Of a DNA stretch of 64,000 nt, positions 5,092 to 64,000 are shown piece by piece. The translations under genes and the position numbers were made by a program. The notes under the pieces were generated by a model. It had not been told where the DNA came from and did no database searches. It was given only the letters and a program-made list of their open reading frames with translations. Source of the stretch: a candidate division FCPU426 bacterium (lineage in GTDB: Bacteria; Oederibacteriota; JAAXVQ01; JAUVAV01); contig JBFLYH010000001.1 in NCBI GenBank assembly GCA_040756875.1, forward strand, positions 640,001 through 704,000. The letters run 5' to 3'. How positions within the stretch are numbered: the stretch's first letter is position 1; each line of letters opens with the position of its first letter.

Positions 5092-5753
5092 GCATGGGCC
5101 CGATAACGCTTTCCGCTTCAGGAAAGCTGGGGACGAGACTCCAATTCGAAATAAAGGCGCGTACCGAGGGATATAAACGGGTGGCCGGACTGGATGAAGC
5201 CGGCCGCGGACCCCTGGCCGGCCCTGTCGTTGCTGCCTGCGTGATTTTACCCGAAGATTGTCAAGGACTGGAAGACCTGGACGATTCCAAGAAGCTTTCA
5301 GCCGAAAAACGCCGTGAACTTTTTATTCTCATCCATGAACGGGCCTTGCATGTGGGAGTCGGCATCGTGGATGCCGGCACCATCGATCGGATCAATATCC
5401 TCCAAGCCACCTTTCTGGCCATGCGCAAAGCGGTGGCCGCGCTATCGGCCCAACCCGATTATTTGCTTATTGACGGCAACCGGCGCCCGGAATGGGCCGG
5501 AGCGGCCGCTTCCTGCCTGGTACGTGGCGAATCGCAATCCTTATCCATTGCCGGCGCTTCCATTATTGCCAAAGAAACCCGGGATCGGATCATGCTCGAC
5601 TACGACCATTTGTATCCGCATTGGGGTTTTGCGCGGCATAAAGGCTATGGCACCCAAGCCCATTTGGAAGCCATACGACGCCACGGCGTCTGCGATCTTC
5701 ACCGCCGCAGTTTTGCTCCTATACAGCAACTGACCCTGGCATGGGCCGATTAA
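5088..5753 (+). CDS. rnhB: Ribonuclease HII
   Basis: GLDEAGRGPLAGPV, DDSKKL, IDGN, ASIIAK, HKGYGT, HRRSF. Confidence 0.97.
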   Translation: MSMGPITLSASGKLGTRLQFEIKARTEGYKRVAGLDEAGRGPLAGPVVAACVILPEDCQGLEDLDDSKKLSAEKRRELFILIHERALHVGVGIVDAGTIDRINILQATFLAMRKAVAALSAQPDYLLIDGNRRPEWAGAAASCLVRGESQSLSIAGASIIAKETRDRIMLDYDHLYPHWGFARHKGYGTQAHLEAIRRHGVCDLHRRSFAPIQQLTLAWAD

Positions 5754-6097
5754 ACCGCAGCAGCGGTCTGGCAGGCGAGAAAGCCGCAGCCGAATATCTT
5801 CTGCGCCATGGGTACAGCATCCTGGAAAAAAATTATCGTACACCCTGGGGTGAAATTGATCTTATTGCCAAGCAAGAAGACTGCTTGTGCTTTATTGAAG
5901 TAAAAAACAGAAGACAGGGTGTATACGGGCATCCCTTGGAAGCCGTAAGCGCGTTAAAGCAAAAAAGAATCACGCGGGCAGCCCAAGCATATCTATCAGA
6001 AAAATTCATTTCCCAAGAACCTAGTTGCCGGTTTGAAGTAATCGGCATTGATGAAAATGGTGAAATTACGCATATTAAAGATGCTTTTCAAGCATAA
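5741..6097 (+). CDS. YraN family (UPF0102) putative endonuclease
   Basis: GEKAAAEYL, NYRTPWGEIDLIA, FIEVK; typical position after rnhB. Confidence 0.93.
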   Translation: MGRLNRSSGLAGEKAAAEYLLRHGYSILEKNYRTPWGEIDLIAKQEDCLCFIEVKNRRQGVYGHPLEAVSALKQKRITRAAQAYLSEKFISQEPSCRFEVIGIDENGEITHIKDAFQA

Positions 6098-34030: not shown

Positions 34031-35674
34031 ATGAAGCTTAAAGCAGTCACCCTGATTCTTTTCGGTTTGCTGAACGCGTCCGCGGCCTGGCCTGACGCCG
34101 GGCCGGCGCCTTCTGTCTCGGAAGAAGGCCAGTTTCTAAAGCTGGTTGAATTCTATTATGCCCGTCCCCAGCCCCGGTCCCTGCCCGGGGCTCTGAAATA
34201 TTTCGTGGAAAAATACAGCCGCCTGCAACCAGCCGAAGGCGATGACGAACTATTGCGGATGGCCGCGTTCGCCAGGTTTTTCGCCGTGCTGGGCGAACGC
34301 CACTCTGAAATCTGGCGCCATGCGGAGTTGTTGTTCAACCAGGCGAGTTGGCCAAAGCGGCAGGCGCTGTTGGAAATCTTCAGCCGCAACCAGGATGAGT
34401 CTTTGCGGAACAGCCTGAAAGGCTGGGCGGCGGCCGAGGAGGATCCGGACCGGCGAATCTTGCTGGAACGCTGTTTGCTCGCCCAAAAGCCGGTGCTGGA
34501 CGTGATGGACGCCCCGCCGGAAAATCTGACGCGCCTGGCCGAACAATGGGCGTGCTTTTTCGCGGTCGGCGACGTGCGCGTCATCGAACTCAGCCTGGCT
34601 GTGCTGGCCGCGCCTGCCGCCGAGGGGGGCGCCGATCTGCGCGCGCAGCGGCTCCGCGAAACCGCGCTGCAGATGCTGCTGCAGCAGGCCCGGGTGCATG
34701 CCTTGGTCCGCGAAAGCCTGGCCAAAACGCTCGCGACGTCGGAAAACGAAGCGCTGCTGCCCTTGCGCCAATCCCTGGCCTGCCAAGCGCTGCAAGCAGG
34801 GGACGCCGGCGCGTTCGACCAGTGGCTGCCCGCTGCCTGGATCAGCCGTCTGCCTGCCGAGCAGCGGGCGTTCTTCGAGGCCTGCTCCGAAGTCCTGAGG
34901 TCCCGCTCGCAGGCAGTGCCCGGCAAGGTCGCGGCCCTGGCCGCTGTGAACCGCGTCCAGGCCGAATGGCTGAAAGCCCACCATGCGTACCTGCGTTTGC
35001 GCGAGGGAGAAGCAGCGGGACGGACTCAACCGCTGGCCGGCCAGGGGCGGGAACTGTTGCTTAAAGCCAAAAACCGCCTGCTGCAGGATCCGGAAACCGC
35101 TTTCTATACCCTGTGGTCGCTGGAAACCGATCCGCCCCAGGCGCGCGCCGAGTCGTTTTACCACCTGCAGGTGGCTGCCCGGGCCGGCCAGGACCGGCGC
35201 TGGCTGGCGCTCATCCGCCTGCTGCCCCAGGAGGCGCAGGCCGATGTGGACGGGAAGATGTTCCGCTGGACCGACCGCCATCCGCAATGGATTCCTGTGG
35301 AAAGCGGATTTTTAGACGCCCGCATCCGTCAGGCGGTCCAAACCGAGGACCTGGCGCAATTTCTGGACCGCTTTTCCCCCCAGAATCTGGCCAAATTCAG
35401 TCAGAGCGGGAGCCAGCCGTTGATCCGCGCTTCATACGAACCTGTTCCCGATGCCGAGCTCTGGAACAACGTCTTGGAGCCGCTTTTCCCCGGCCAGCGC
35501 CATACGCTTTCCCGTTTGCTCGTGGATGTGGACGCCTCCACCCAGCAGCCCGTAAGGGTTCAGGCCGAAGTCGTCGTCCAGGTGGACGGGCGGATCGTGG
35601 CCCGGGGTGAGGTCGAACAAATTTTTTACGACCCAGGGCCGGATTCGCTCGCCTGGCTGGAGGCACTGCGTTGA
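34031..35674 (+). CDS. Hypothetical exported protein
   Basis: Long ORF filling the gap between yajC and miaB, signal-peptide-like start, overlaps miaB start; no family recognised. Confidence 0.65.
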   Translation: MKLKAVTLILFGLLNASAAWPDAGPAPSVSEEGQFLKLVEFYYARPQPRSLPGALKYFVEKYSRLQPAEGDDELLRMAAFARFFAVLGERHSEIWRHAELLFNQASWPKRQALLEIFSRNQDESLRNSLKGWAAAEEDPDRRILLERCLLAQKPVLDVMDAPPENLTRLAEQWACFFAVGDVRVIELSLAVLAAPAAEGGADLRAQRLRETALQMLLQQARVHALVRESLAKTLATSENEALLPLRQSLACQALQAGDAGAFDQWLPAAWISRLPAEQRAFFEACSEVLRSRSQAVPGKVAALAAVNRVQAEWLKAHHAYLRLREGEAAGRTQPLAGQGRELLLKAKNRLLQDPETAFYTLWSLETDPPQARAESFYHLQVAARAGQDRRWLALIRLLPQEAQADVDGKMFRWTDRHPQWIPVESGFLDARIRQAVQTEDLAQFLDRFSPQNLAKFSQSGSQPLIRASYEPVPDAELWNNVLEPLFPGQRHTLSRLLVDVDASTQQPVRVQAEVVVQVDGRIVARGEVEQIFYDPGPDSLAWLEALR

Positions 35675-37002
35675 TCACCGGCACGTTCTACCTGCATACC
35701 CTCGGCTGCCAAATGAACGAATACGACAGCGAACGCGTGGCTGGCGCGCTCATGGCCGAAGGCTGGCAGGCGGCCGGGCAGCCCGAAGAGGCGGATCTTT
35801 TGCTGATCAATACCTGCACCGTGCGCCAGCTGGCCGAACACAAGGCCTTTTCGCTGCTTGGCCGCTGGGCGCAGTTGAAAGCCCGGAAGCCCGGGCGGCT
35901 GATCGGAATGCTGGGTTGTCTGGCGCAGGACCTGGGCCCGGACGCTTTCCGGCGCGCGCCAGCCCTTGATTTTCTGGCCGGTCCGCGGGCCCTGGCCGAA
36001 GTGCCGCTGCTGGTGGAACGCGCGCGCCAGGGAGCGAGGCCGGCCGAACTGTCGGTGCGGCCTTTTGGCCGGGGAATTACAATGGCACCGGACGCCCCGC
36101 ACGTGTCGGCTTACGTGGCGGTCATGGAAGGGTGCGACCAAGGTTGCGCCTATTGCGCGGTGCCCCAGGCGCGCGGACGGGAACAATCGCGCCCGCTGGA
36201 CGACGTTCTGGCCGAAGTCAGGCGGCGTCTGGACGGCGGAGCCAGGGAAATCGTGCTCCTGGCCCAGAACATCACCCGTTACGGGTTTGATCTCGCTTCG
36301 GACGAGAAGTTGCCCGTGCTCCTGGCCCGTGTCGCGGAGATGCCGGGCTTGAGCCGGCTGCGCTTTTTAACCGGCCATCCCGCGGCCTTTGACGATCGGC
36401 TGCTGCGGGCATGGCAGGACCTGCCGGCTTTGTGCGAGGCCCTGCACCTGCCGCTGCAATCTGGTTCCGACAGCGTGCTGCGCGACATGCGCCGCGGTTA
36501 TACGGCCGGGTATTACCTGCGCCTGGCCGAGCGCCTGCATGCCGCAGTGCCGGGGTTGGCGCTGACCACGGATCTGATCGTGGGATTTCCGGGCGAAACT
36601 GACGCTGATTTCCAGGCCACCCTCGACATGGCAGAGCGCTGCGGCTTTGATTCAGCTTTCTGCTTCAAATATTCGCCGCGCCGGCAAACCCCGGCCGCGG
36701 CGTATCCCGACCAGGTCCCGGAAAGCGTCAAAACCGAACGCCTGGCCGAACTCATGCAGCGGCTTGAGGTCCAAACCCTCGCCAAAAAAGCGGCCCTGGT
36801 GGGCAGGCGCGAACGCGTGCTGTTCGAGGGCCTGGACGCGCGTTCCGGGCAGTATCTGCGGGGACGGACGCGGCGCAACCACCTGGTGCACGTCGCCGGA
36901 CCCGTAGCATGGGTCGGCCGCGAGCTGGAAGTGGACATTACCGCGGCCGGACACTGGTCCCTGAGCGGCCAGGCTGTCACGCCCGGGGAGGGCGGCGCAT
37001 GA
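35671..37002 (+). CDS. miaB: tRNA-2-methylthio-N6-isopentenyladenosine synthase
   Basis: TLGCQMNEYDSE, NTCTVR, radical SAM CDQGCAYC, HLPLQSGSD, DLIVGFPGET, TRAM domain. Confidence 0.95.
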   Translation: MITGTFYLHTLGCQMNEYDSERVAGALMAEGWQAAGQPEEADLLLINTCTVRQLAEHKAFSLLGRWAQLKARKPGRLIGMLGCLAQDLGPDAFRRAPALDFLAGPRALAEVPLLVERARQGARPAELSVRPFGRGITMAPDAPHVSAYVAVMEGCDQGCAYCAVPQARGREQSRPLDDVLAEVRRRLDGGAREIVLLAQNITRYGFDLASDEKLPVLLARVAEMPGLSRLRFLTGHPAAFDDRLLRAWQDLPALCEALHLPLQSGSDSVLRDMRRGYTAGYYLRLAERLHAAVPGLALTTDLIVGFPGETDADFQATLDMAERCGFDSAFCFKYSPRRQTPAAAYPDQVPESVKTERLAELMQRLEVQTLAKKAALVGRRERVLFEGLDARSGQYLRGRTRRNHLVHVAGPVAWVGRELEVDITAAGHWSLSGQAVTPGEGGA

Positions 37003-38048
37003 AGCGGGTCACGGCATATCTCCGGGCGGCTGCCGGCGTTTTTTTCATTCTCGGAATTACCGCTGCGGCGCGGGCTGCGGACAACGAGGAAGCGGCTTAC
37101 CGCGAAGCCGCAGTCTGGTTCAACCAGGGCGACTGGGCCAAGGCCCGCGACGCCTTCACGCGATTTCTCGAGCAATATCCCAAGTCCGGCTGGCAACCGG
37201 CCGTCCAGCTGCGCCTGGCGGATTTGGAGCCGGACACCCCAAAAGCCGTGGAACAGTACCGCCAGGTGCTGCGCCAATGGCCCAAAAGCGAATGGGCCCA
37301 GGACGCGCGCTGGGCCCTGGCGCAAACGCTGTTCGTGGGTGGCGATTTAAAAGCCGCGCTGGCGGAACTGAATTCCATCGGCCCGGAAAGCGGCGGGCGC
37401 CATCCGCACGCCCTGTACCTGGCCGGCCTGTGCCAGCTGCAAAACCGGCAGTACGCGGAAGCCAAGTCCTCCTTCGACGACGTGCTTTCCCAGTATGCCG
37501 CCTCGGAATGGGCCGGCCCGAGTTTGGTGGGGCTGGCTGAAGCCGAATTGGGGATGAACAACGCGCAGGCCGCGCTCAACGCCCTGGACCGGTATCTCCA
37601 GGAAAACCCCCAGGGCGATTTTGCGGCGCAGGCCCTGGCAGCCAAAGCCCGGGCCGCAGAACGCCAGGGCGGCCCGCAGGCTGCCACCGGCATCCTTCAG
37701 GACCTGATGGCGCGTTATGCGGAAAGCTACGAGGCTGAACAGGCCCGCCCGCGCTTGGCCGCCGGCGCGAATGCTCCGGCCCCGGCAACCGGGGAAACCG
37801 GCAAGTACACGGTCCAGGTCGGGGCCTTTGCCAAAGCCGACTACGCCCAAAAACTGGTGGAACGCCTGCGCAAGAAAGGCTACAACGCCTATATCCTGGA
37901 AACCCGCCAGGGGGAGGAAGTGTTCAGCCAGGTGCGCGTCGGCCACTACGCCTCCCGGGAATTTGCTCAAAAGATCGGGGACAAACTGTCCCGCAGCGAC
38001 AAGCTGCCGTATCTGGTCATTCCCTATACGCCCGTGGAAAAGAAGTAG
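36999..38048 (+). CDS. Exported TPR + SPOR domain protein
   Basis: Signal peptide, YP.S TPR repeats, C-terminal YTVQVGAF...VRVG SPOR domain. Confidence 0.85.
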   Translation: MKRVTAYLRAAAGVFFILGITAAARAADNEEAAYREAAVWFNQGDWAKARDAFTRFLEQYPKSGWQPAVQLRLADLEPDTPKAVEQYRQVLRQWPKSEWAQDARWALAQTLFVGGDLKAALAELNSIGPESGGRHPHALYLAGLCQLQNRQYAEAKSSFDDVLSQYAASEWAGPSLVGLAEAELGMNNAQAALNALDRYLQENPQGDFAAQALAAKARAAERQGGPQAATGILQDLMARYAESYEAEQARPRLAAGANAPAPATGETGKYTVQVGAFAKADYAQKLVERLRKKGYNAYILETRQGEEVFSQVRVGHYASREFAQKIGDKLSRSDKLPYLVIPYTPVEKK

Positions 38049-38058
38049 CCAGGATCCC

Positions 38059-40293
38059 ATGACCCCTCCTGCCAACCGTTCCGTACCGCCCCAGGAAACC
38101 AGAACTGAAAAAGCCACTCCCATGATGCAGCAATACCAGCGGATCAAGGACGAGCATCCCGAGGCGCTGCTGGAACTGGGGCGGCTGCAGCCCGCGGAAA
38201 TCCTGCTGCCCGACGACTGGGCGCCTGACCGCAAGGGCAGGCTGGCCGCGGCGGCGGGGGCCGTGCTGACCGACCTTCCGGGGTTCCGCTTCGACGAGGA
38301 TGCGGGTCGCAGCCAGCTGCTGGAATTTTTCCGCCTGGATTCCCTCGAGGGGTCCGGCCTGGCCGCGTACGGTCCGGGACTGGGCGCCTCGGCCGCGGCC
38401 CTGTTCTACCTGGCCGAGACCCAGCGGAGCAGCCTCAGCCATATCCACCGCCTGTCTCCGTACACACTTTCCACGCACATGCGCCTGGATGAGGCCACGA
38501 TCCGGAATCTGGAGCTGGTGCGCAGCCTCAGCGACGGTTCGCGGCGGAACACGTTGCTGGATGTTTTGGATTGCAGCCGCACTTCCATGGGCGCGCGCAA
38601 ATTGCGGCAATGGGTGCTGCGGCCGCTGCTGGACCTGGGCCAGATCCGCGCCCGGCAGGCCGCGGTGGCCGAACTGGCCGAGCCCGGCAGCCGGCGGCAG
38701 GCCCTGACCGACCTGCTGGACCGCACGTACGACCTGGAGCGCCTGGCCGGGCGCGTGGGCGCGCAATCCGCCACCCCCCGCGATTTATCGGCCCTGGCCG
38801 CCACGCTTCGCCTGCTGCCCGAACTCAAGCAGGCGCTCGGCCATTTTTCTTCCGGGCTGCTGGCCGGTTCCGCGCGGACCCTGCCGGAGTGCGCCTCCAC
38901 GGCGGAGTTGTTGAGCCGGGCGCTGGTGGATCAGCCGCCGGTCACCCACAAAGAAGGCGGCGTGATCCGGGCCGGGTACCATGCGGAGGTGGACGAACTC
39001 CGCGACCTCAGCCATTCGGGCCGCAACACCATCGCGTCGCTGCAGGCGCGCGAGAGGGAGCAGACCGGAATCTCCAGCCTGAAAGTGGAGTACAATCAGG
39101 TGTTCGGGTATTACTTCGAGGTCACCAAGGCCAACGCCAAGCTGGTGCCCGAGCACTACCAGCGCAAGCAAACCCTGGTCAACTCCGAACGCTACACCAC
39201 GCCCGAGCTCCTGGAATACGAACGCAAGGTCTTGGGCGCCCAGGACCGCCTGATGGCTCTGGAGGAGGAGCTGTTTCTCGAGCTGCGCCGGAAAGTCAGC
39301 GGGCAGCTGCTCGAAATCCAGCAGGCCGCGGCCGAGGTGGCGCAGCTGGACGCGCTGCTGTCGCTGGCCGAGGCCGCGCTGCGGTACCAATACCAGCGCC
39401 CTGTGGTGGACGACGGCCCGGTGCTGGAGATCCAGGACGGCCGGCACCCGGTGGTGGAGCGGCTGACGCCGGACAAGTTCGTCCCCAACAGCGTGCTGCT
39501 CGACAAGGAGCAAAACAAAGTCCTGATCATCACCGGCCCCAACATGGCCGGCAAATCAACCTACCTGCGGCAGACCGCTTTGATCGTCATCATGGCGCAG
39601 ATCGGCAGCCTGGTGCCCGCGGGTTCGGCCCGCATCGGGCTGGTGGACCGGGTCTTCACCCGAGTCGGCGCGGCGGACAACCTGGCCCAGGGGCAAAGCA
39701 CCTTCATGGTGGAAATGACCGAAACCGCCAATATCCTCCGCCACGCCACCCCGCGCTCCCTGGTCATCCTGGACGAGGTGGGGCGGGGCACCAGCACTTT
39801 CGACGGCGTGTCCATTGCCTGGGCCGTGGCCGAGTATCTGCACGACCGCGCGGACGCCAAAACCCTCTTTGCCACCCACTACTACGAGCTGACCGAACTG
39901 GCCCTGTCCAAGCCGCAGGTGAAAAATTTCAACATCGCGGTCAGGGAATGGAAGGACCAGATTATCTTCCTGCGCAAAATCGTGGCCGGCAGCGCGGACC
40001 GCTCCTACGGCATCCAGGTCGCCCGGTTGGCCGGGCTGCCCAACGAAGTGATCAGCCGGGCCCAGGAAGTGCTTTTGAACCTGGAGAAGGCCAACTACAC
40101 CGAGGCAGGCTCCTCGCGCCTGGCTGAACACGCGGGCGAGTCCCAGGCCGCAGGCGCGGGGCAAATGGGCCTGTTCGAGGACGCTCCGGCCCGGGAATTG
40201 GCGCGCTGGTTCGCGGACCTGGACCCGGAGCGCATGACCCCGCTCGAGGCGCTCAACGCCCTGTCCGCGCTCAAACGCAAATTGGAACCCTGA
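38059..40293 (+). CDS. mutS: DNA mismatch repair protein MutS with apparent in-frame internal deletion of domain I and part of domain II
   Basis: TPMMQQY start, ITGPNMAGKST, STFMVEM, DEVGRGTSTFDG, FATHY, SYGIQVA; 744 aa; GxFYE motif absent. Confidence 0.93.
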   Translation: MTPPANRSVPPQETRTEKATPMMQQYQRIKDEHPEALLELGRLQPAEILLPDDWAPDRKGRLAAAAGAVLTDLPGFRFDEDAGRSQLLEFFRLDSLEGSGLAAYGPGLGASAAALFYLAETQRSSLSHIHRLSPYTLSTHMRLDEATIRNLELVRSLSDGSRRNTLLDVLDCSRTSMGARKLRQWVLRPLLDLGQIRARQAAVAELAEPGSRRQALTDLLDRTYDLERLAGRVGAQSATPRDLSALAATLRLLPELKQALGHFSSGLLAGSARTLPECASTAELLSRALVDQPPVTHKEGGVIRAGYHAEVDELRDLSHSGRNTIASLQAREREQTGISSLKVEYNQVFGYYFEVTKANAKLVPEHYQRKQTLVNSERYTTPELLEYERKVLGAQDRLMALEEELFLELRRKVSGQLLEIQQAAAEVAQLDALLSLAEAALRYQYQRPVVDDGPVLEIQDGRHPVVERLTPDKFVPNSVLLDKEQNKVLIITGPNMAGKSTYLRQTALIVIMAQIGSLVPAGSARIGLVDRVFTRVGAADNLAQGQSTFMVEMTETANILRHATPRSLVILDEVGRGTSTFDGVSIAWAVAEYLHDRADAKTLFATHYYELTELALSKPQVKNFNIAVREWKDQIIFLRKIVAGSADRSYGIQVARLAGLPNEVISRAQEVLLNLEKANYTEAGSSRLAEHAGESQAAGAGQMGLFEDAPARELARWFADLDPERMTPLEALNALSALKRKLEP

Positions 40294-56846: not shown

Positions 56847-59140
56847 GGAACGGTCCTTTGCGGATGAGTGGTGGCGGGGTTGGCAATGGCGGCCAGGGCA
56901 ATAACTGCCTGCCCGAGAGACAATCCTCCGTCGTTGGCGGGGAAGAGCCGGGGATGGAAGACTTGCAAGCCGTTTTGCACGAGTTCCGTGCGGACCAACC
57001 CCAGCAATAAATCGTTTTGAAAAACTCCGCCACTCAAAACCACGCGATCTAAATGATGTTCCGCCGCCAGTATAACACACATCCGTGAAATCGCCCCGGC
57101 CAGCGTCCGATGGAACCGCATGGCCATTCGGGCCCGGTCATCATGAGTTTTAAGATCGCGCAAGAGTTCATGGAGCATCGGTTTGAAATCAAGGATCCGG
57201 CTTTTCCCGTTTTGGCTTATTTCAAAAGAATATAATGACTTTTCGGATTGTTCCGCCAAGGCTTGGAGGCGCACGGCTGCCTGGCCTTCATAGGTCAAGG
57301 TATGGTCAAAGCCTAGCAAGGCGGCAACTGCATCAAATAGCCGGCCTGCACTGGAGGTCACGGGAAAGGGATAAGCGGACTGTAGGAGTGCAGTGAGATG
57401 TTCTTTTTCGTAGGAGGTTAAGGAGGGCAAGCTGTTATGGACTTGAGTGCCCCAGTCACTGCCCAACAAGTCGAATAAGTAACTGACAGCCATGCGGGCA
57501 GGATGCAGGATGGCTTGTTCTCCCCCTGGAAGCGGCAGGGGTTTCAAATGACCAGCCCGTAAAAAACCATGGTAGGAGGCGATCAGAAATTCACCTCCCC
57601 ACAAGGTTTGATCAAGGCCATATCCACTGCCATCCCAAGCAACGCCAATGACCTTTTCCTGCAAGCCGTGTTCGGCCATGACAGCTGCAATATGGGCATG
57701 ATGATGCTGAACCGGGAGGCCCGTTTGGCCCAATGTTTGTGCCCAACGGGAGGAGTGGTAATCAGGATGCATATCATACGCAAGGTAACGGGGATTTATT
57801 TCCAGAAGGCTTTTCCAATCGGTTACTTGATGCTGATATGCCAGGAAGGAGGCATAGTCTGAAATATTCCCGAGGTGTTGTGATACCCATGCTTGGCGTC
57901 CTCGTGTCAGGCAGAAAGTGTTTTTTAAATCCCCACCACAAGCTAAAATCGACGGGCCATCAAGAGGGAGCTGACATACATCCGGGACATATCCTCGGGC
58001 ACGACGTATTACCACGTTCCCGAAATCGCTTGTTTTTATTACCGAATCGTCGCAAGTCCGCAATATGGGGCGATTATGGCACAAGGCGTAATCGGCGACT
58101 GGTCCAAGGATTCGTTTTAATTCAGTCTCATCCCGTACAATGGGCTCTTCCGAAAAATTGCCGCTGGTCATCACCAGCGGACTTATTTCTGCCAGCAGAA
58201 GGTGGTGCAAAGGAGTATAAGGCAGCATAACGCCTACATCCGGAGTGTCCGGTGAAAGAAGGTCAGGCAAAAGCGAAGCAGGCAGACGACGACAAATAAC
58301 GATAGGTAGTGATGGCAGCGATAATTCCCGGCGTATATTCTCAGTGACTTGGCAATTGGATTCGATCTGATCGATGCTGGCAAACATGACAGCCAATGGC
58401 TTGTGGGGGCGGTTTTTACGGGTCCTTAATTGTGCAATCACTTCAGGTTTTAAAGCATCGCAAGCCAAATGGTAGCCGCCGAGTCCTTTAATGGCTACAA
58501 TTGCCCCGGCAGCCAGCAAACGGGCGCTTTCCAGCAGGGGATCTCCATTTTGGACATTACCCGAGGCATCTACGAGAACCAATTTAGGGCCGCAGTTCGG
58601 ACAGGCATTTGGTTGGGCGTCAAACCGCCGGTCCATGGGATCCGAATATTCACTCTCGCATTCCTGGCATTGGGAAAAAACAGACATAGAAGTAAACGCT
58701 CGGTCATAGGGAAGATCGCGGATGATTGTAAATCGAGGCCCGCAATTGGTACAATTCGTGAATTCATAGCGATAACGCCGGTTGGAAGGCGTTTCAATCT
58801 CCACCCGGCATTGATCACATAAGGCTAAATCTGGTGGAAAGACCAATGAAGGCTCAGCTGATGGCAGGCTTTGATTGATTGAAAACGGAGGCATATTTGT
58901 AACTGGCAATTCCTCGAAAGTAATATGGTCTATCCTGGCTTGGGGAGGTGGCGACTCTTTTATTTTCATGAAAAACCTTTCAACAATGGCATTTTCGCCT
59001 TGAACCTCAACTTCAACACCTGCAGATGTGTTTTTAACCCCTCCTAAAAGACCCATAAAATTGGCATAACGAAAAATGGTGGGCCTGAAGCCAACGCCTT
59101 GGACACGTCCTGTTATTTTAGCCTTTATTCTTTGAATCAT
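56837..59140 (-). CDS. hypF: Carbamoyltransferase HypF
   Basis: GRVQGVGFRP, CTNCGPRF, KGLGGYHL, QHHHAH, SSAGRLFDA, NDGGLSLGQ. Confidence 0.98.
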   Translation of the reverse strand: MIQRIKAKITGRVQGVGFRPTIFRYANFMGLLGGVKNTSAGVEVEVQGENAIVERFFMKIKESPPPQARIDHITFEELPVTNMPPFSINQSLPSAEPSLVFPPDLALCDQCRVEIETPSNRRYRYEFTNCTNCGPRFTIIRDLPYDRAFTSMSVFSQCQECESEYSDPMDRRFDAQPNACPNCGPKLVLVDASGNVQNGDPLLESARLLAAGAIVAIKGLGGYHLACDALKPEVIAQLRTRKNRPHKPLAVMFASIDQIESNCQVTENIRRELSLPSLPIVICRRLPASLLPDLLSPDTPDVGVMLPYTPLHHLLLAEISPLVMTSGNFSEEPIVRDETELKRILGPVADYALCHNRPILRTCDDSVIKTSDFGNVVIRRARGYVPDVCQLPLDGPSILACGGDLKNTFCLTRGRQAWVSQHLGNISDYASFLAYQHQVTDWKSLLEINPRYLAYDMHPDYHSSRWAQTLGQTGLPVQHHHAHIAAVMAEHGLQEKVIGVAWDGSGYGLDQTLWGGEFLIASYHGFLRAGHLKPLPLPGGEQAILHPARMAVSYLFDLLGSDWGTQVHNSLPSLTSYEKEHLTALLQSAYPFPVTSSAGRLFDAVAALLGFDHTLTYEGQAAVRLQALAEQSEKSLYSFEISQNGKSRILDFKPMLHELLRDLKTHDDRARMAMRFHRTLAGAISRMCVILAAEHHLDRVVLSGGVFQNDLLLGLVRTELVQNGLQVFHPRLFPANDGGLSLGQAVIALAAIANPATTHPQRTVPCA

Positions 59141-59142
59141 AG

Positions 59143-59796
59143 TTAATAGTTAATAATCCATTCGCAGAAATCTAGTATTCCTCTATCCATCAAGGCAGAA
59201 ACTTGAAATATCTTGATTTTACTGTTAATTTCATGAATGAATCCTATTGTTGAATCCAGATCATATTTGAGATGGGGCAATAGATCTGTTTTAGTAATAA
59301 TAACAGCTTTAGCTTCATGAAAAAGTAGTGGATACTTAATTGGTTTGTCTTCCCCTTCAGTAACGCTTAGTACGGCTATTTTAGCATCTTCTCCAAGGTC
59401 AAATTCTGCTGGGCAAACCATATTTCCAACATTTTCAACAAAAATTAATTTAATTGCAGACAAATCCAAATCATTTAAAGCTTGGTGGATTAAACTAGCT
59501 TCTAAATGGCAAGAACCTCCTGTTAATAGCTGGCTAACTTTTATGCCCAATTTATCAAGTCTTTCAGAATCACGGGTGGTTTCTACATCACCTTCAAGAA
59601 CTGCAAATCTGATTTTTTTATTGAGCAGATGTTTATTCAATCCTTCTAGTAATGAAGTTTTTCCAGCACCTGGCGAACCGATTAAATTAAACATTTTTAT
59701 CATTTTGTTTTTCAATAAAGATTTGTTTTCTCTAGCGATGGAATTATTTTCATGAAGGATATCACGATATATTTTAATACTAATATTATTTAACAT
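59143..59796 (-). CDS. hypB: Hydrogenase nickel incorporation GTPase HypB
   Basis: GSPGAGKT, TGGSCHL, ENVGNMVCPAEFDLG, TEGEDKP.KYP, TKTD. Confidence 0.97.
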   Translation of the reverse strand: MLNNISIKIYRDILHENNSIARENKSLLKNKMIKMFNLIGSPGAGKTSLLEGLNKHLLNKKIRFAVLEGDVETTRDSERLDKLGIKVSQLLTGGSCHLEASLIHQALNDLDLSAIKLIFVENVGNMVCPAEFDLGEDAKIAVLSVTEGEDKPIKYPLLFHEAKAVIITKTDLLPHLKYDLDSTIGFIHEINSKIKIFQVSALMDRGILDFCEWIINY

Positions 59797-60170
59797 TAAT
59801 TGTTCTCCTCAATCTCAATAGATTCAATAAATAATTCTTTGCCATTTGTGATATCTATAGATATTGAATTGCATTTTACACAAACATATTTATTAAAGGG
59901 AATTTCTCCAGTATATCCGCAATTATTGCATGATATTTTTAATGGTATAATATCAATATTTAATTCAGATCCAAACAAATATGAATCGATAGTTAAAGTT
60001 CTATATGCAAATTTTAAATACTCTGGTATCACTTGGCGTAAACTCCCAATTTTAATATTTATTTTTTTTATTGAAGTATTTTTTTCATTATAATTACTTT
60101 TTAAAAAAATATTCTTTATCTCTGAATTAATTATATTAATTAAACTCGTGCATATAGAAAATTCATGCAT
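59796..60170 (-). CDS. hypA: Hydrogenase nickel metallochaperone HypA
   Basis: MHE start with AGAGG RBS, CNNC and CVKC, GKEL.I.SIE. Confidence 0.93.
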   Translation of the reverse strand: MHEFSICTSLINIINSEIKNIFLKSNYNEKNTSIKKINIKIGSLRQVIPEYLKFAYRTLTIDSYLFGSELNIDIIPLKISCNNCGYTGEIPFNKYVCVKCNSISIDITNGKELFIESIEIEENN

Positions 60171-61464
60171 TTTAACCTCTTTAAATAAATTAAATATTAA
60201 ATATTCCTTTTGTATCTTTAAAAAACACCAGTAAATGATAATGAATATTAAATAAATTAAAAAATTAACATTTTTAAAAACAAAAATACAACATGAATAA
60301 ATTTTAAATAAAAGTGATAATAAAGAGAGTAACATTATTAATAAATAAATATTTACTAATAATCACAAAATAAAATTTAGATTCTGCCAATTATTCAAAT
60401 ATTTTACTATAAATAATTTATTAAGTTTTACATTTAAAAAGCATGTTATTCAATATATCAGTATCCATGGGCTTGTTATATGTGGAATAGGTGAATGGTT
60501 TGCCCAGACATGTAAGCATCGACTTATGGTCTAGGGATTTACTCTATTAATACTATCAGACATGTTTTTAAATGAATCCGGAATGATATCGAATTGTCTG
60601 ATGCTAAATTTTATTTTAGGCAATTCATTATTCCGCATTCTCATTATTTAAGATACTCTTTTATTTTTAGTACCTATGGTATCCCTGGTCGACGTAAAGC
60701 CAGACTGTTTTCTTTGTTGTACGGCAATTGCATCATTCAGATAAACAAGTGATATACATATAATAAAACCATCCAAGCCTCGGAGAAAAGTCGATCGATC
60801 ATTTAAGACGTGTTTCGTAAGAATGTCATGCAATGTCTGATTCAATGAATTGAATTCAACGAAATTTTATTTTCAAAATAGTGTCTGAGAATCGCAGAAT
60901 CTTGAAATGAAATGATCTCTAAAATATCGTCGTTTCGGGATCCGATAAAGCCACAGGAATTTTAGCAAACAGAATAAAATGATGCCATGAATCAATTTGC
61001 CGACATTTTCTTAATGAAGTTATTATATAGGGAAGAAAGGAAAATTCAATGTAAACGTCAAACGTTGCAGTAAAAATCACCTATGTTGTGAGGCCCAAAA
61101 GTATTGTTGAAAGAAAAATAATATTATAGAGATATTACATAAATGAAATAATGGAAAATAATATAACATACTTAGAATAATGGTTTAATATGCATTATTG
61201 ATAAGGTGAATAAATGAATTACAAAATTAGATATTATGTAATTTCACGCATATAGAATAATATTATATTAATAGGAATAATGATTAAATGCGAGTATATT
61301 AACTTCATTGTGAATTTAAAATTATTGAATGGTTTCGTTTATTGTTGGGGATTTTTGTTGTTCGTACTTAATTAGGGATTGTTCTTTAGGCGGGAGGAGA
61401 GGGAACACTTTTCTATAATTGCTTCTTAGAATTTAAACATGGATGTGATAAAATTTCAAAACTT
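60171..61464. other. Very AT-rich divergent intergenic region
   Basis: Hand counts: 6/60 G+C at 60241-60300 and 7/60 at 60301-60360; no credible ORF; lies between divergent hypA and MCP. Confidence 0.8.
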
Positions 61465-62727
61465 ATGAATACCTTCAAACGGATAAATACTGCTGCGACA
61501 ATCGCATTCGTTTCGGGCGCTTCATGCGGTTTGTTGATATTTTGGTTATTGCTCATCTTCGACATTGCTCGATTACCAAAATGGTTTAGCGGAATGGCCG
61601 CTATTATCCTGGCTACCAGTCTATCCATTTGGTTAATAAAGCATTTTTTCACTCTTTCCTTGAAGAAAACCTCTGAATTACTAGGCGAAATAGCACTTTT
61701 CAAAGCCCCTACCACTTCCGACAAGTTCCGGGAAGTTTTTTTAAACGACGTAATCAATCGAGTTGTCGATCAATTGAAGGGACAGCAAAACACAAGTAAA
61801 CAAATACAGCAAACCTTGAACGGAATCATCGAAGGGTGGAATCGCACCCTTCGCACTCATCAGACGGATTGGGATCTTTGGCAGAAGCAACTGGCTTTGC
61901 TCAATCAGCATTTCGATCAAATCAAGTCCCAATGCAAGAAAATCCTGGTTGTCAATCAGTCCCTGATTAAATCGGATAACGGACTGGCCAGTTCGATGGA
62001 AGAAATGGCCAGAGATGTCATGCTAACCAGTCAGACGGCCAATGAGGGGATTCGTTCAGTTGGCAGGGAGATACGGGCTATTAGCGATTTAAAAACCACG
62101 ATGGGTTCTTCGGCGACGGTTATCAAAGATCTGGGAGAGCTTTCCAAGCATGTAGGACAGTTTATTTCCACTATTGCCGCCATAAGTCATCGCACGCAAT
62201 TGTTGGCATTGAATGCGGGTATTGAAGCAGCCCGCGCCGGCGAAGCAGGCCGCGGATTCTCCGTGGTGGCGAATGAAATCCGGACTTTATCCGAATCCTC
62301 AAAAAAAACCACCGAGGATATCGCCGCCCTTATCAGGGAGATCGAACAAAGAACCCAAAATGTCATCGATTTGATGCAAAATACCAAAAAACTCGAGGAG
62401 AATATACGCGTCGTTTACACGGCAGGCGATACCTTCATGGATATTGTACGGGAAGTGAAGCAGATCCACACCGTGGTGGATCAGGTCAATCAGACTTTGC
62501 AGTCTACCAGCAATGATAGCGAATTGTTGTATGCAATGATGGTTAAATTAAAAGAAGAGATTGATAGAACTGACCGTTCGCTCCATATCGTCAACGAATC
62601 GAATAAGCACCAGCAAGAATCATGGGAAGCCATTCAGACTTTCAAAACAGAAACCGCAAACCAATTTCTCGATCCGGGCTCTCAACCGAATTTGGAATCC
62701 GGACGTCCTGATATACTTGACGCCTAA
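61465..62727 (+). CDS. Methyl-accepting chemotaxis protein
   Basis: Two N-terminal TMs; [35 protein letters not shown]. Confidence 0.92.
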
Positions 62728-62773
62728 GGCCGATTCTTTTACAGTATAAGGGTGGGGAAAGGGGAAATCTCGA

Positions 62774-63127
62774 ATGAAAAATGTTGAGATGCAAGTTGAA
62801 ATGGCCGGTCCCAAGAAAGATATCGCGGTTATCAGAGTGTATGGTTATGTTGACTCTGATACTTCGCGAAGTGTCAGCAAGTTTTTAGAGGATGTGATTA
62901 AAAGCGGCCATTATCGCATTATTTTTGATTTGGAACGGACGGAATATATCAGCAGTGCCGGCTGGGGTATTTTTATTGGAGAAGTCAGAAGTCTTAGGGA
63001 AAACGGCGGGGATTTAAAACTGGCGGGAATGACGCCGGAAGTGGAAGAAATCTTTAAAATGCTGGAATTTTTCAATGTGTTAAAGTCATTTGATACGGTT
63101 AAAGCAGCCATTTCCGATTATGCCTGA
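62774..63127 (+). CDS. STAS domain anti-sigma factor antagonist
   Basis: GYVD, YISSAGWG (phosphorylatable Ser), GGDLKL. Confidence 0.92.
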   Translation: MKNVEMQVEMAGPKKDIAVIRVYGYVDSDTSRSVSKFLEDVIKSGHYRIIFDLERTEYISSAGWGIFIGEVRSLRENGGDLKLAGMTPEVEEIFKMLEFFNVLKSFDTVKAAISDYA

Positions 63128-63794
63128 AACAAGCCCTGCCTTGAAGTGGGCGGTTTTTCAAGTCGGTTTGCTGGAGACGAATTGTTACTTGGCTTGGGAT
63201 TCGGAAAGTCGGGAGGCTTTCGTTATTGATCCCGGTTCCCCCTCGAAAAGCCTGGAAGCGGCGATTGAGGCCAATGGGTTGCATTTAATAGCAATCATCA
63301 ACACCCACGGGCACTCAGATCATATCGGAGGAAACGCCCGTTTAAAAAAAATCACCGGCGCCCCGGTATATCTGCATCCCGATGACAGTGCGATCGCCGA
63401 GGACCCCAGGTCAAACCTTTCGATACGGTGGGGATTTCCCGTAAAATATCCTAAAATGGATAGAACTTTAATTCCCGGTGAAGACATCGTGCTGAATAAA
63501 ACCGAATTCAAAATATGGCATACACCCGGGCATACACCCGGCTCGATCTGTCTGGTTGCAAACGACTTTATCTTCACCGGTGATACTCTTTTTGCCCATT
63601 CGATTGGCAGAACTGACCTCCCGGGAGGAAATGCCCAACAAATGAGTGAAAGCATTAAAAAATTCAACGCAGTGAAAGACAATGTCGCCTTATTTCCAGG
63701 ACATGGTCCGCTCTCGACTTTCCTAAAGACAAGGCAGCAAAACCCCTTTCTCAACGCGCTTAGCGACATCGTACCGGAAGAGAGCATTCAATGA
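63120..63794 (+). CDS. MBL-fold metallo-hydrolase (glyoxalase II-like)
   Basis: TNCY, THGHSDHIGG, HTPGHTPG, GDTLF..SIGRTD, PGHG. Confidence 0.93.
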   Translation: MPETSPALKWAVFQVGLLETNCYLAWDSESREAFVIDPGSPSKSLEAAIEANGLHLIAIINTHGHSDHIGGNARLKKITGAPVYLHPDDSAIAEDPRSNLSIRWGFPVKYPKMDRTLIPGEDIVLNKTEFKIWHTPGHTPGSICLVANDFIFTGDTLFAHSIGRTDLPGGNAQQMSESIKKFNAVKDNVALFPGHGPLSTFLKTRQQNPFLNALSDIVPEESIQ

Positions 63795-64000
63795 AGATTA
63801 ATGAGATGTTTGTAGTTTTGTCATTTTTTATCTTTATAAATATTGGAAATTATTGCTTTGCCCAAAAGGCCGAATCAAATTATGCCATAGAGAATAATGA
63901 AAGCGACGGTCAAATCGTCTCTAACAGCCACTATCTTTCCGAATTGCGCATTCTTCATGAAGGAGCCATTTTCATATTCAAACGCTATGCCACCTTGGAA
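63791..64000 (+). CDS. Hypothetical exported protein, runs off the window end
   Basis: ATG overlaps previous stop; frame open to 64000 (MKINEMFVVLSFFIFINIGNYCFAQ...), signal-peptide-like. Confidence 0.55.
   Translation, partial: MKINEMFVVLSFFIFINIGNYCFAQKAESNYAIENNESDGQIVSNSHYLSELRILHEGAIFIFKRYATLE

Follow-up and report, generated by a model that had tools for sequence, protein, structure and literature searches.

The locus described here lies in a window of 64,000 nt, the whole stretch of DNA that was analysed, from a genome designated G000; a sister genome of the same genus (G001) and an outgroup (G007) served for comparison. The window carries a mutS gene of the MutS1 family (Table 1), in whose translation TPMMQQYQRIKDEHPEALL runs straight into ELGRLQPAEILL. 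At this junction GAGGCGCTGCTG starts at position 38161, and two leucine codons are followed by a glutamate codon from 38173. A radical SAM/TRAM gene, which we take to be MiaB-like, and a gene for a TPR/YfiO-SPOR protein precede mutS, an MFS gene begins 4 nt past its stop, and this order, the upstream pair and the MFS gene included, is kept in G001. The leader ahead of the TPMM motif differs within the genus, with 19 aa here, 24 in P0002 and 68 in P0003.

Table 1. Coordinates of mutS, its parts and the other features discussed; positions are those of the window unless a contig is named.
Feature	Position	Strand	Remarks
Radical SAM/TRAM gene and TPR/YfiO-SPOR protein gene	35671-38048	+	upstream of mutS
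mutS (MutS1 family) ORF, 744 aa	38059..40293	+	ATG at 38059, stop ends at 40293; gene order as in G001
Leader 5' of TPMM	38059-38115		length differs in genus
Domain I remnant TPMM...HPEALL, 19 aa	38116..38172	+	low confidence in AlphaFold model
Deletion junction, two Leu codons	38167..38172	+	side of origin ambiguous; 432 nt fewer than G001
Remaining connector (MutS_II, profile 37-132 of 133)	38173..38445	+	Pfam
Core and lever (MutS_III), intact	38494..39369	+	Pfam, AlphaFold model
Clamp (MutS_IV), intact	38974-39249	+	Pfam; within MutS_III stretch
ATPase domain (MutS_V), intact	39523..40086	+	Pfam; 90% identity to sister
Walker A motif GPNMAGKST	39535-39561		
YraN-family gene	5741-6097	+	weak NucS_C hit
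AT-rich block	~58000-64000 and beyond (G000:C1:698000-710000)		contains mutL
mutL, 586 aa	L032:856-2616 (G000:C1:706640-708400)		intact

On the combined grounds of HMM scores, tree and synteny the product of this gene is a MutS1 by orthology. It passes the curated models TIGR01070 (793.3 vs a cut-off of 641.7) and NF003810 (834.7 vs 480), and an identity as MutS2 was rejected, with a TIGR01069 score of 181.2 against a cut-off of 400 and no Smr found by Pfam. Pfam recovers MutS_II (aa 36-129), MutS_III, MutS_IV and MutS_V in the 744-aa protein and no MutS_I, and a MutS_I profile search of the whole genome returned just profile positions 1-19, a 19-residue stub that falls below the cut-off. The Phe-X-Glu motif was not found in the G000 protein when its motifs were compared with the loci of relatives, and the connector (domain II) is incomplete, beginning at profile position 37. 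Of the features expected of a functional MutS1, the core, clamp and ATPase are thus intact, whereas the Phe-X-Glu domain I and a complete connector are lacking. Counted from the TP motif, the protein measures 725 aa against 863-883 in relatives (21 loci in which the motif was found). The initial annotation had described a mutS shorter than typical, with an in-frame deletion of its mismatch-recognition region and with clamp and ATPase preserved, and the domain searches bear this description out on each point.

Comparison with the syntenic and intact mutS of G001, which is 81% identical, defines the extent of the loss. The gap amounts to 144 codons, or 432 nt, and corresponds approximately to residues 30-168 of E. 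coli MutS, F36 and E38 included, in a numbering counted by hand on an alignment of the sister-like P0003 with the E. coli protein. Approximately 95 residues of domain I and approximately 40 residues of the connector, its first third, are covered. The connector of E. coli MutS comprises residues 128-266 and forms an interface with MutL (PMC4521584), and the positions equivalent to the MutL contacts Q211/Q212 are retained here. Judged on this alignment, the deletion is a ragged cut through the connector and no domain excision, such that the earlier claim of a removed domain holds for the mismatch-recognition part itself and gives way where the cut takes the start of domain II as well. In an alignment-based AlphaFold model, pLDDT lies below 50 at residues 1-27 and 32-39, and domains III-V are modelled confidently with a fold that matches MutS structures, though such a model gives no measure of the stability of the truncated connector. 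A single-sequence fold of the same protein reached a pLDDT of 37.6.

Among relatives the deletion stands alone. A search of 60 phylum genomes (completeness of at least 90%) recovered MutS_I from 59, G000 being the exception, and the sister-genome comparison proposed at the outset accordingly returned an intact gene in G001 and the domain in all 59 other genomes. The pattern R.GDF.E occurs in 27 of 29 mutS loci of relatives, and the other two are fragments at contig edges. The G000 protein forms a cluster of one, and MutS_I is present in every one of the 24 other database proteins that match its N-terminal 120 residues. None of the best 150 of 517 HMMER hits shares the junction; both flanking motifs are present in 57 of these 150, with F-X-E between them in 54, and the remaining three are motif mis-hits. 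A recurring MutS architecture that lacks domain I was therefore seen in 0 of 59 phylum genomes and in 0 of 24 and 0 of 150 database hits. Protein searches for an intact conspecific MutS found none closer than about 82%, and a degenerate DNA pattern for a conspecific allele gave 0 matches in metagenome contigs, a collection from which records near this genome may be absent. As far as these searches reach, the allele is strain-private. The literature found holds no report of this particular natural mutS deletion, with subscription journals poorly covered.

Such a solitary allele invites the suspicion of an assembly error, in which the population would have an intact mutS and the junction would be a product of collapse during assembly or of a chimera in the library, a possibility that the initial annotation had placed on an equal footing with a real deletion. 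The stretch is contained in run X1, which is recorded as a groundwater metagenome and is a possible source of the DNA, and next to none of it occurs in two other runs of the same study (X2, X3). A Logan contig of 88,129 nt from X1, with a depth of 55.6, shows 0 differences to the window between 37400 and 39200 and, aligned on the sister gene, skips exactly 432 nt. Among the loose ends listed for the Logan assembly, none with exact flanks leaves the junction. Collapse is unlikely because this second assembly carries the same junction unbroken at such depth. Further points against it are that the words flanking the junction have no nearby repeat in the genome, that the lost piece is absent from a genome rated 100% complete, and that a repeat of 6-7 nt is too short for the assembly word length, which far exceeds it. 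In favor of an artefact, the junction is known from a single run that is only a possible source of the DNA, protein and DNA searches yielded no conspecific sequence, and the evidence is at the level of contigs, from which rare variants get dropped; the check compares two contig-level assemblies, probably of one sample, and would not reveal an intact allele present at low frequency. Missing cover of the interior by Logan contigs is weak evidence alone, since the sister gene has 76% DNA identity and the cover test a threshold of 80%. Taken together, we consider an artefact very improbable and take the in-frame mutS deletion to be genuine.

The sister gene offers a view of how the deletion may have arisen. 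In its protein the ends correspond to D-A-L-L/L-F and D-L-L-L/E, which leaves an ambiguity over two leucine codons, and the leucine codons there are TTG CTG at the left end and CTG TTG at the right. When in-frame deletions are placed at random in the sister gene, 1.6% of them show an ambiguity of at least two residues, in a test that was chosen post hoc, and CTG accounts for 57% of the leucine codons of G000. The Leu-Leu register of the breakpoint likely reflects slippage at a short repeat of the CTGCTG type, 6-7 nt in length. Two such short runs of leucine codons, 432 nt apart, could have been brought together by slippage or microhomology-mediated joining, and the reading frame would have been kept because of this spacing. 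The microhomology origin put forward in the initial annotation is thus plausible as regards the Leu-Leu register and the 1.6% figure; as regards the repeat itself it is a reconstruction, in which the sister has TTG CTG and CTG TTG.

The consequences of the lesion depend on what else the genome has to offer. By tblastn and a MutS_V search of the genome rated 100% complete, no second MutS-family gene was found, and the MutS_V search returned no MutS2. An intact mutL is present and keeps the endonuclease motifs DQHAAHERLIYE, ACK and CPHGRP. A NucS substitute was considered and rejected, as the weak NucS_C hit (22.9 bits, below cut-off) is a YraN-family protein, whose gene adjoins a gene that we take to be RNase HII-like. 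These results answer the proposed check of mutL, a second mutS and nucS. They also dispose of the suggestion of a dominant-negative allele, which would be without a target because a second mutS is absent.

The mutL gene is 58% identical to that of the sister, vs 81% for MutS; in a set of 41 genes it ranks with those that change fastest, equally so in both species. It is followed by a presumably miaA-like gene and has a GC content of 0.445, within an AT-rich block in which GC is 0.30-0.49 vs about 0.60 and identity to the sister is 48-70% for most genes and 88% for one. In G001 the block is found in synteny and is just as AT-rich. It is likely an effect of the replication terminus, because it adjoins the cumulative GC-skew peak at ~C1:715000.

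Studies of MutS in cultured bacteria allow the effect of the deletion to be anticipated. E. coli MutS F36A does not bind a G-T mismatch and still binds G4 DNA (PMC3437207), and loading of MutL requires the clamp state together with a repositioned connector (PMC4521584). Deprived of Phe-X-Glu, along with most of domain I and the beginning of the connector, the G000 protein would leave mismatches unrecognised; without mismatch engagement it would stay out of the clamp state, the intact MutL would not be loaded, and errors of replication would persist uncorrected, for the most part transitions and small indels. Loss of mismatch repair is to be expected because of the binding loss of F36A, the requirements of MutL loading and the absence of a NucS substitute, and we infer that the sole mutS has been inactivated without a substitute pathway. 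In our assessment the deletion is probably a young, strain-private allele that confers a mismatch-repair-deficient mutator state. The mismatch-blind, mutator-type allele of the initial annotation accordingly stands as the most likely reading, with Phe-X-Glu removed and inactivation argued from E. coli F36A.

The closest parallels are with known lesions of mutS. As in E. coli F36A, the Phe wedge is gone and the ATPase is kept (PMC3437207), though F36A loses one side chain and G000 loses approximately 95 residues of domain I and 40 of the connector, such that residual binding and folding may differ. As in mutants of P. aeruginosa, the lesion affects the sole mutS and MutL is intact (PMC10579334 and PMC9718400). 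Under MutS deficiency in that species, 50 of 50 early variants were transitions (PMC9718400), and the deficiency conferred an advantage within the species over the short term (PMC10579334); hypermutation dominated by transitions, with a similar short-term advantage, would be the expected outcome here too. Unlike known mutS mutants, this allele is an in-frame deletion of 144 codons that leaves a 744-aa ORF passing NCBIfam cut-offs, and its host is an uncultured environmental lineage for which the mutator phenotype is predicted. By analogy, it most likely works like known mutS null alleles.

A mutator of long standing should have marked its genome, and we searched for such a footprint in comparisons that covered 2.0 Mb of the G001 genome (~3.0 Mb) and 0.37 Mb of the G007 genome (3.4 Mb). 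With G007 as the outgroup, lineage-specific amino-acid changes numbered 1697 in G000 and 1693 in G001 (110 genes, 43,188 sites), and 715 vs 753 in a smaller set of 41 genes. The transition excess that the initial annotation had proposed to look for did not materialize at the scale of species divergence, with second-position transitions and transversions at 179:224 vs 182:235 (p=0.83). Among 1199 orthologue pairs, G000 had 0 split genes and G001 had one, and a frameshift control detected 99 of 150 planted events under criteria looser than those of the screen. The large-indel screen missed the mutS deletion itself, whose first piece is shorter than 30 aa, and thus provides no estimate of how often such deletions occur. 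C-terminal truncations numbered 8 in G000 and 13 in G001, some of them at edges of the sequence compared. Near-identical repeats gave transitions to transversions of 22:10 vs 11:9, at few sites, with tRNAs likewise few, and homopolymer runs at least 6 long show no depletion (1339 vs 1181). Four-fold sites are near saturation between the species (1968 of 3537 differ), which makes these tests weak for recent lesions; they exclude only a long-standing hypermutator.

The remainder of mutS has not accelerated, with 30 vs 28 and 19 vs 15 changes, and in the mutS tree the G000 branch of 0.15 compares with a root-to-tip distance of 0.145 for G001. Domain-wise counts gave 24 G000-specific changes vs 14, figures that are not comparable, as the latter refer only to the branch shared by two sisters. 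Substitutions at family-invariant sites (F99S, A111S, A176S) have their like in the sister (5 vs 2 at highly conserved sites). The lesion is probably young, because comparison with the sister species reveals no trace of a mutator, and too little time for decay would leave the rest of mutS still conserved; continued selection would account for this conservation equally well. The same silence in rate, spectrum and frameshifts, and the undepleted homopolymer runs, would also be seen if repair had been lost or reduced at low cost, the mutation rate staying near normal through an unrecognised route or very slow replication while the allele drifted up. We regard this as unlikely, given that neither NucS nor a second MutS was found, that retention of MutS_I in 59 of 59 relatives searched implies importance in the phylum, and that the negative footprint tests are underpowered for recent events.

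MSH4/MSH5 and bacterial MutS2 are MutS homologues that lack domain I. Like the G000 protein they have a clamp and an ATPase but no domain for mismatch recognition, which raises the possibility, also voiced in the initial annotation, of a repurposed MutS. It would act on DNA as a clamp or ATPase independently of mismatches, binding junctions or structures in the manner of MSH4/MSH5 or MutS2, with domains III-V under selection. The kept frame and the intact ATPase, clamp and C-terminus without acceleration are compatible with such a role, as are the absence of MutS2 from the genome, the confident model of domains III-V with its match to MutS structures, and the G4 DNA binding that E. coli F36A retains (PMC3437207). 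These families are ancient and conserved. The G000 protein, by contrast, is orthologous to MutS1, with 81% identity to its sister; it retains an uneven remnant of domain I and lacks Smr or any such added domain. Of the genomes searched, G000 alone has the allele, no relatives share its junction, the cut runs inside the connector and off the domain border, and the 19-aa remnant is 79-84% identical to the sisters, as expected without time to adapt. F99S, A111S and A176S also hit family-invariant sites, though the sister has similar changes (5 vs 2). Repurposing is thus quite unlikely in our judgement, and we prefer the young mutator allele. A variant in which a near-clonal wild population has fixed a stable, expressed and sensor-less MutS, kept as a mismatch-independent clamp in a nascent loss of domain I of the MSH4/MSH5 kind, strikes us as highly doubtful.

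The deletion is an ordinary kind of gene damage and reveals no new mechanism or system. The broken allele nevertheless seems to dominate an environmental population, and if the mutator reading is true, a mismatch-repair mutator would dominate a natural population of an uncultured phylum; the mutator literature that we found concerns mostly pathogens and laboratory strains. Because the allele passes curated MutS cut-offs, surveys of presence and absence would count its mutS as intact and genome surveys would miss such mutators.

Some minor observations emerged from the genome comparison. The G000 ORF at C2:7465-9411 corresponds to two adjacent frames at G001:C1:1177935-1179892, an apparent frameshift in the sister. 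Giant ORFs at G000:C2:60456-97805, C1:1055290-1085400 and C3:396737-415210 show block differences of hundreds to thousands of residues relative to their G001 orthologues. ARAGORN reports a 96-nt tRNA-Lys(ctt) at G000:C1:407292-407387 besides a normal 76-nt copy.
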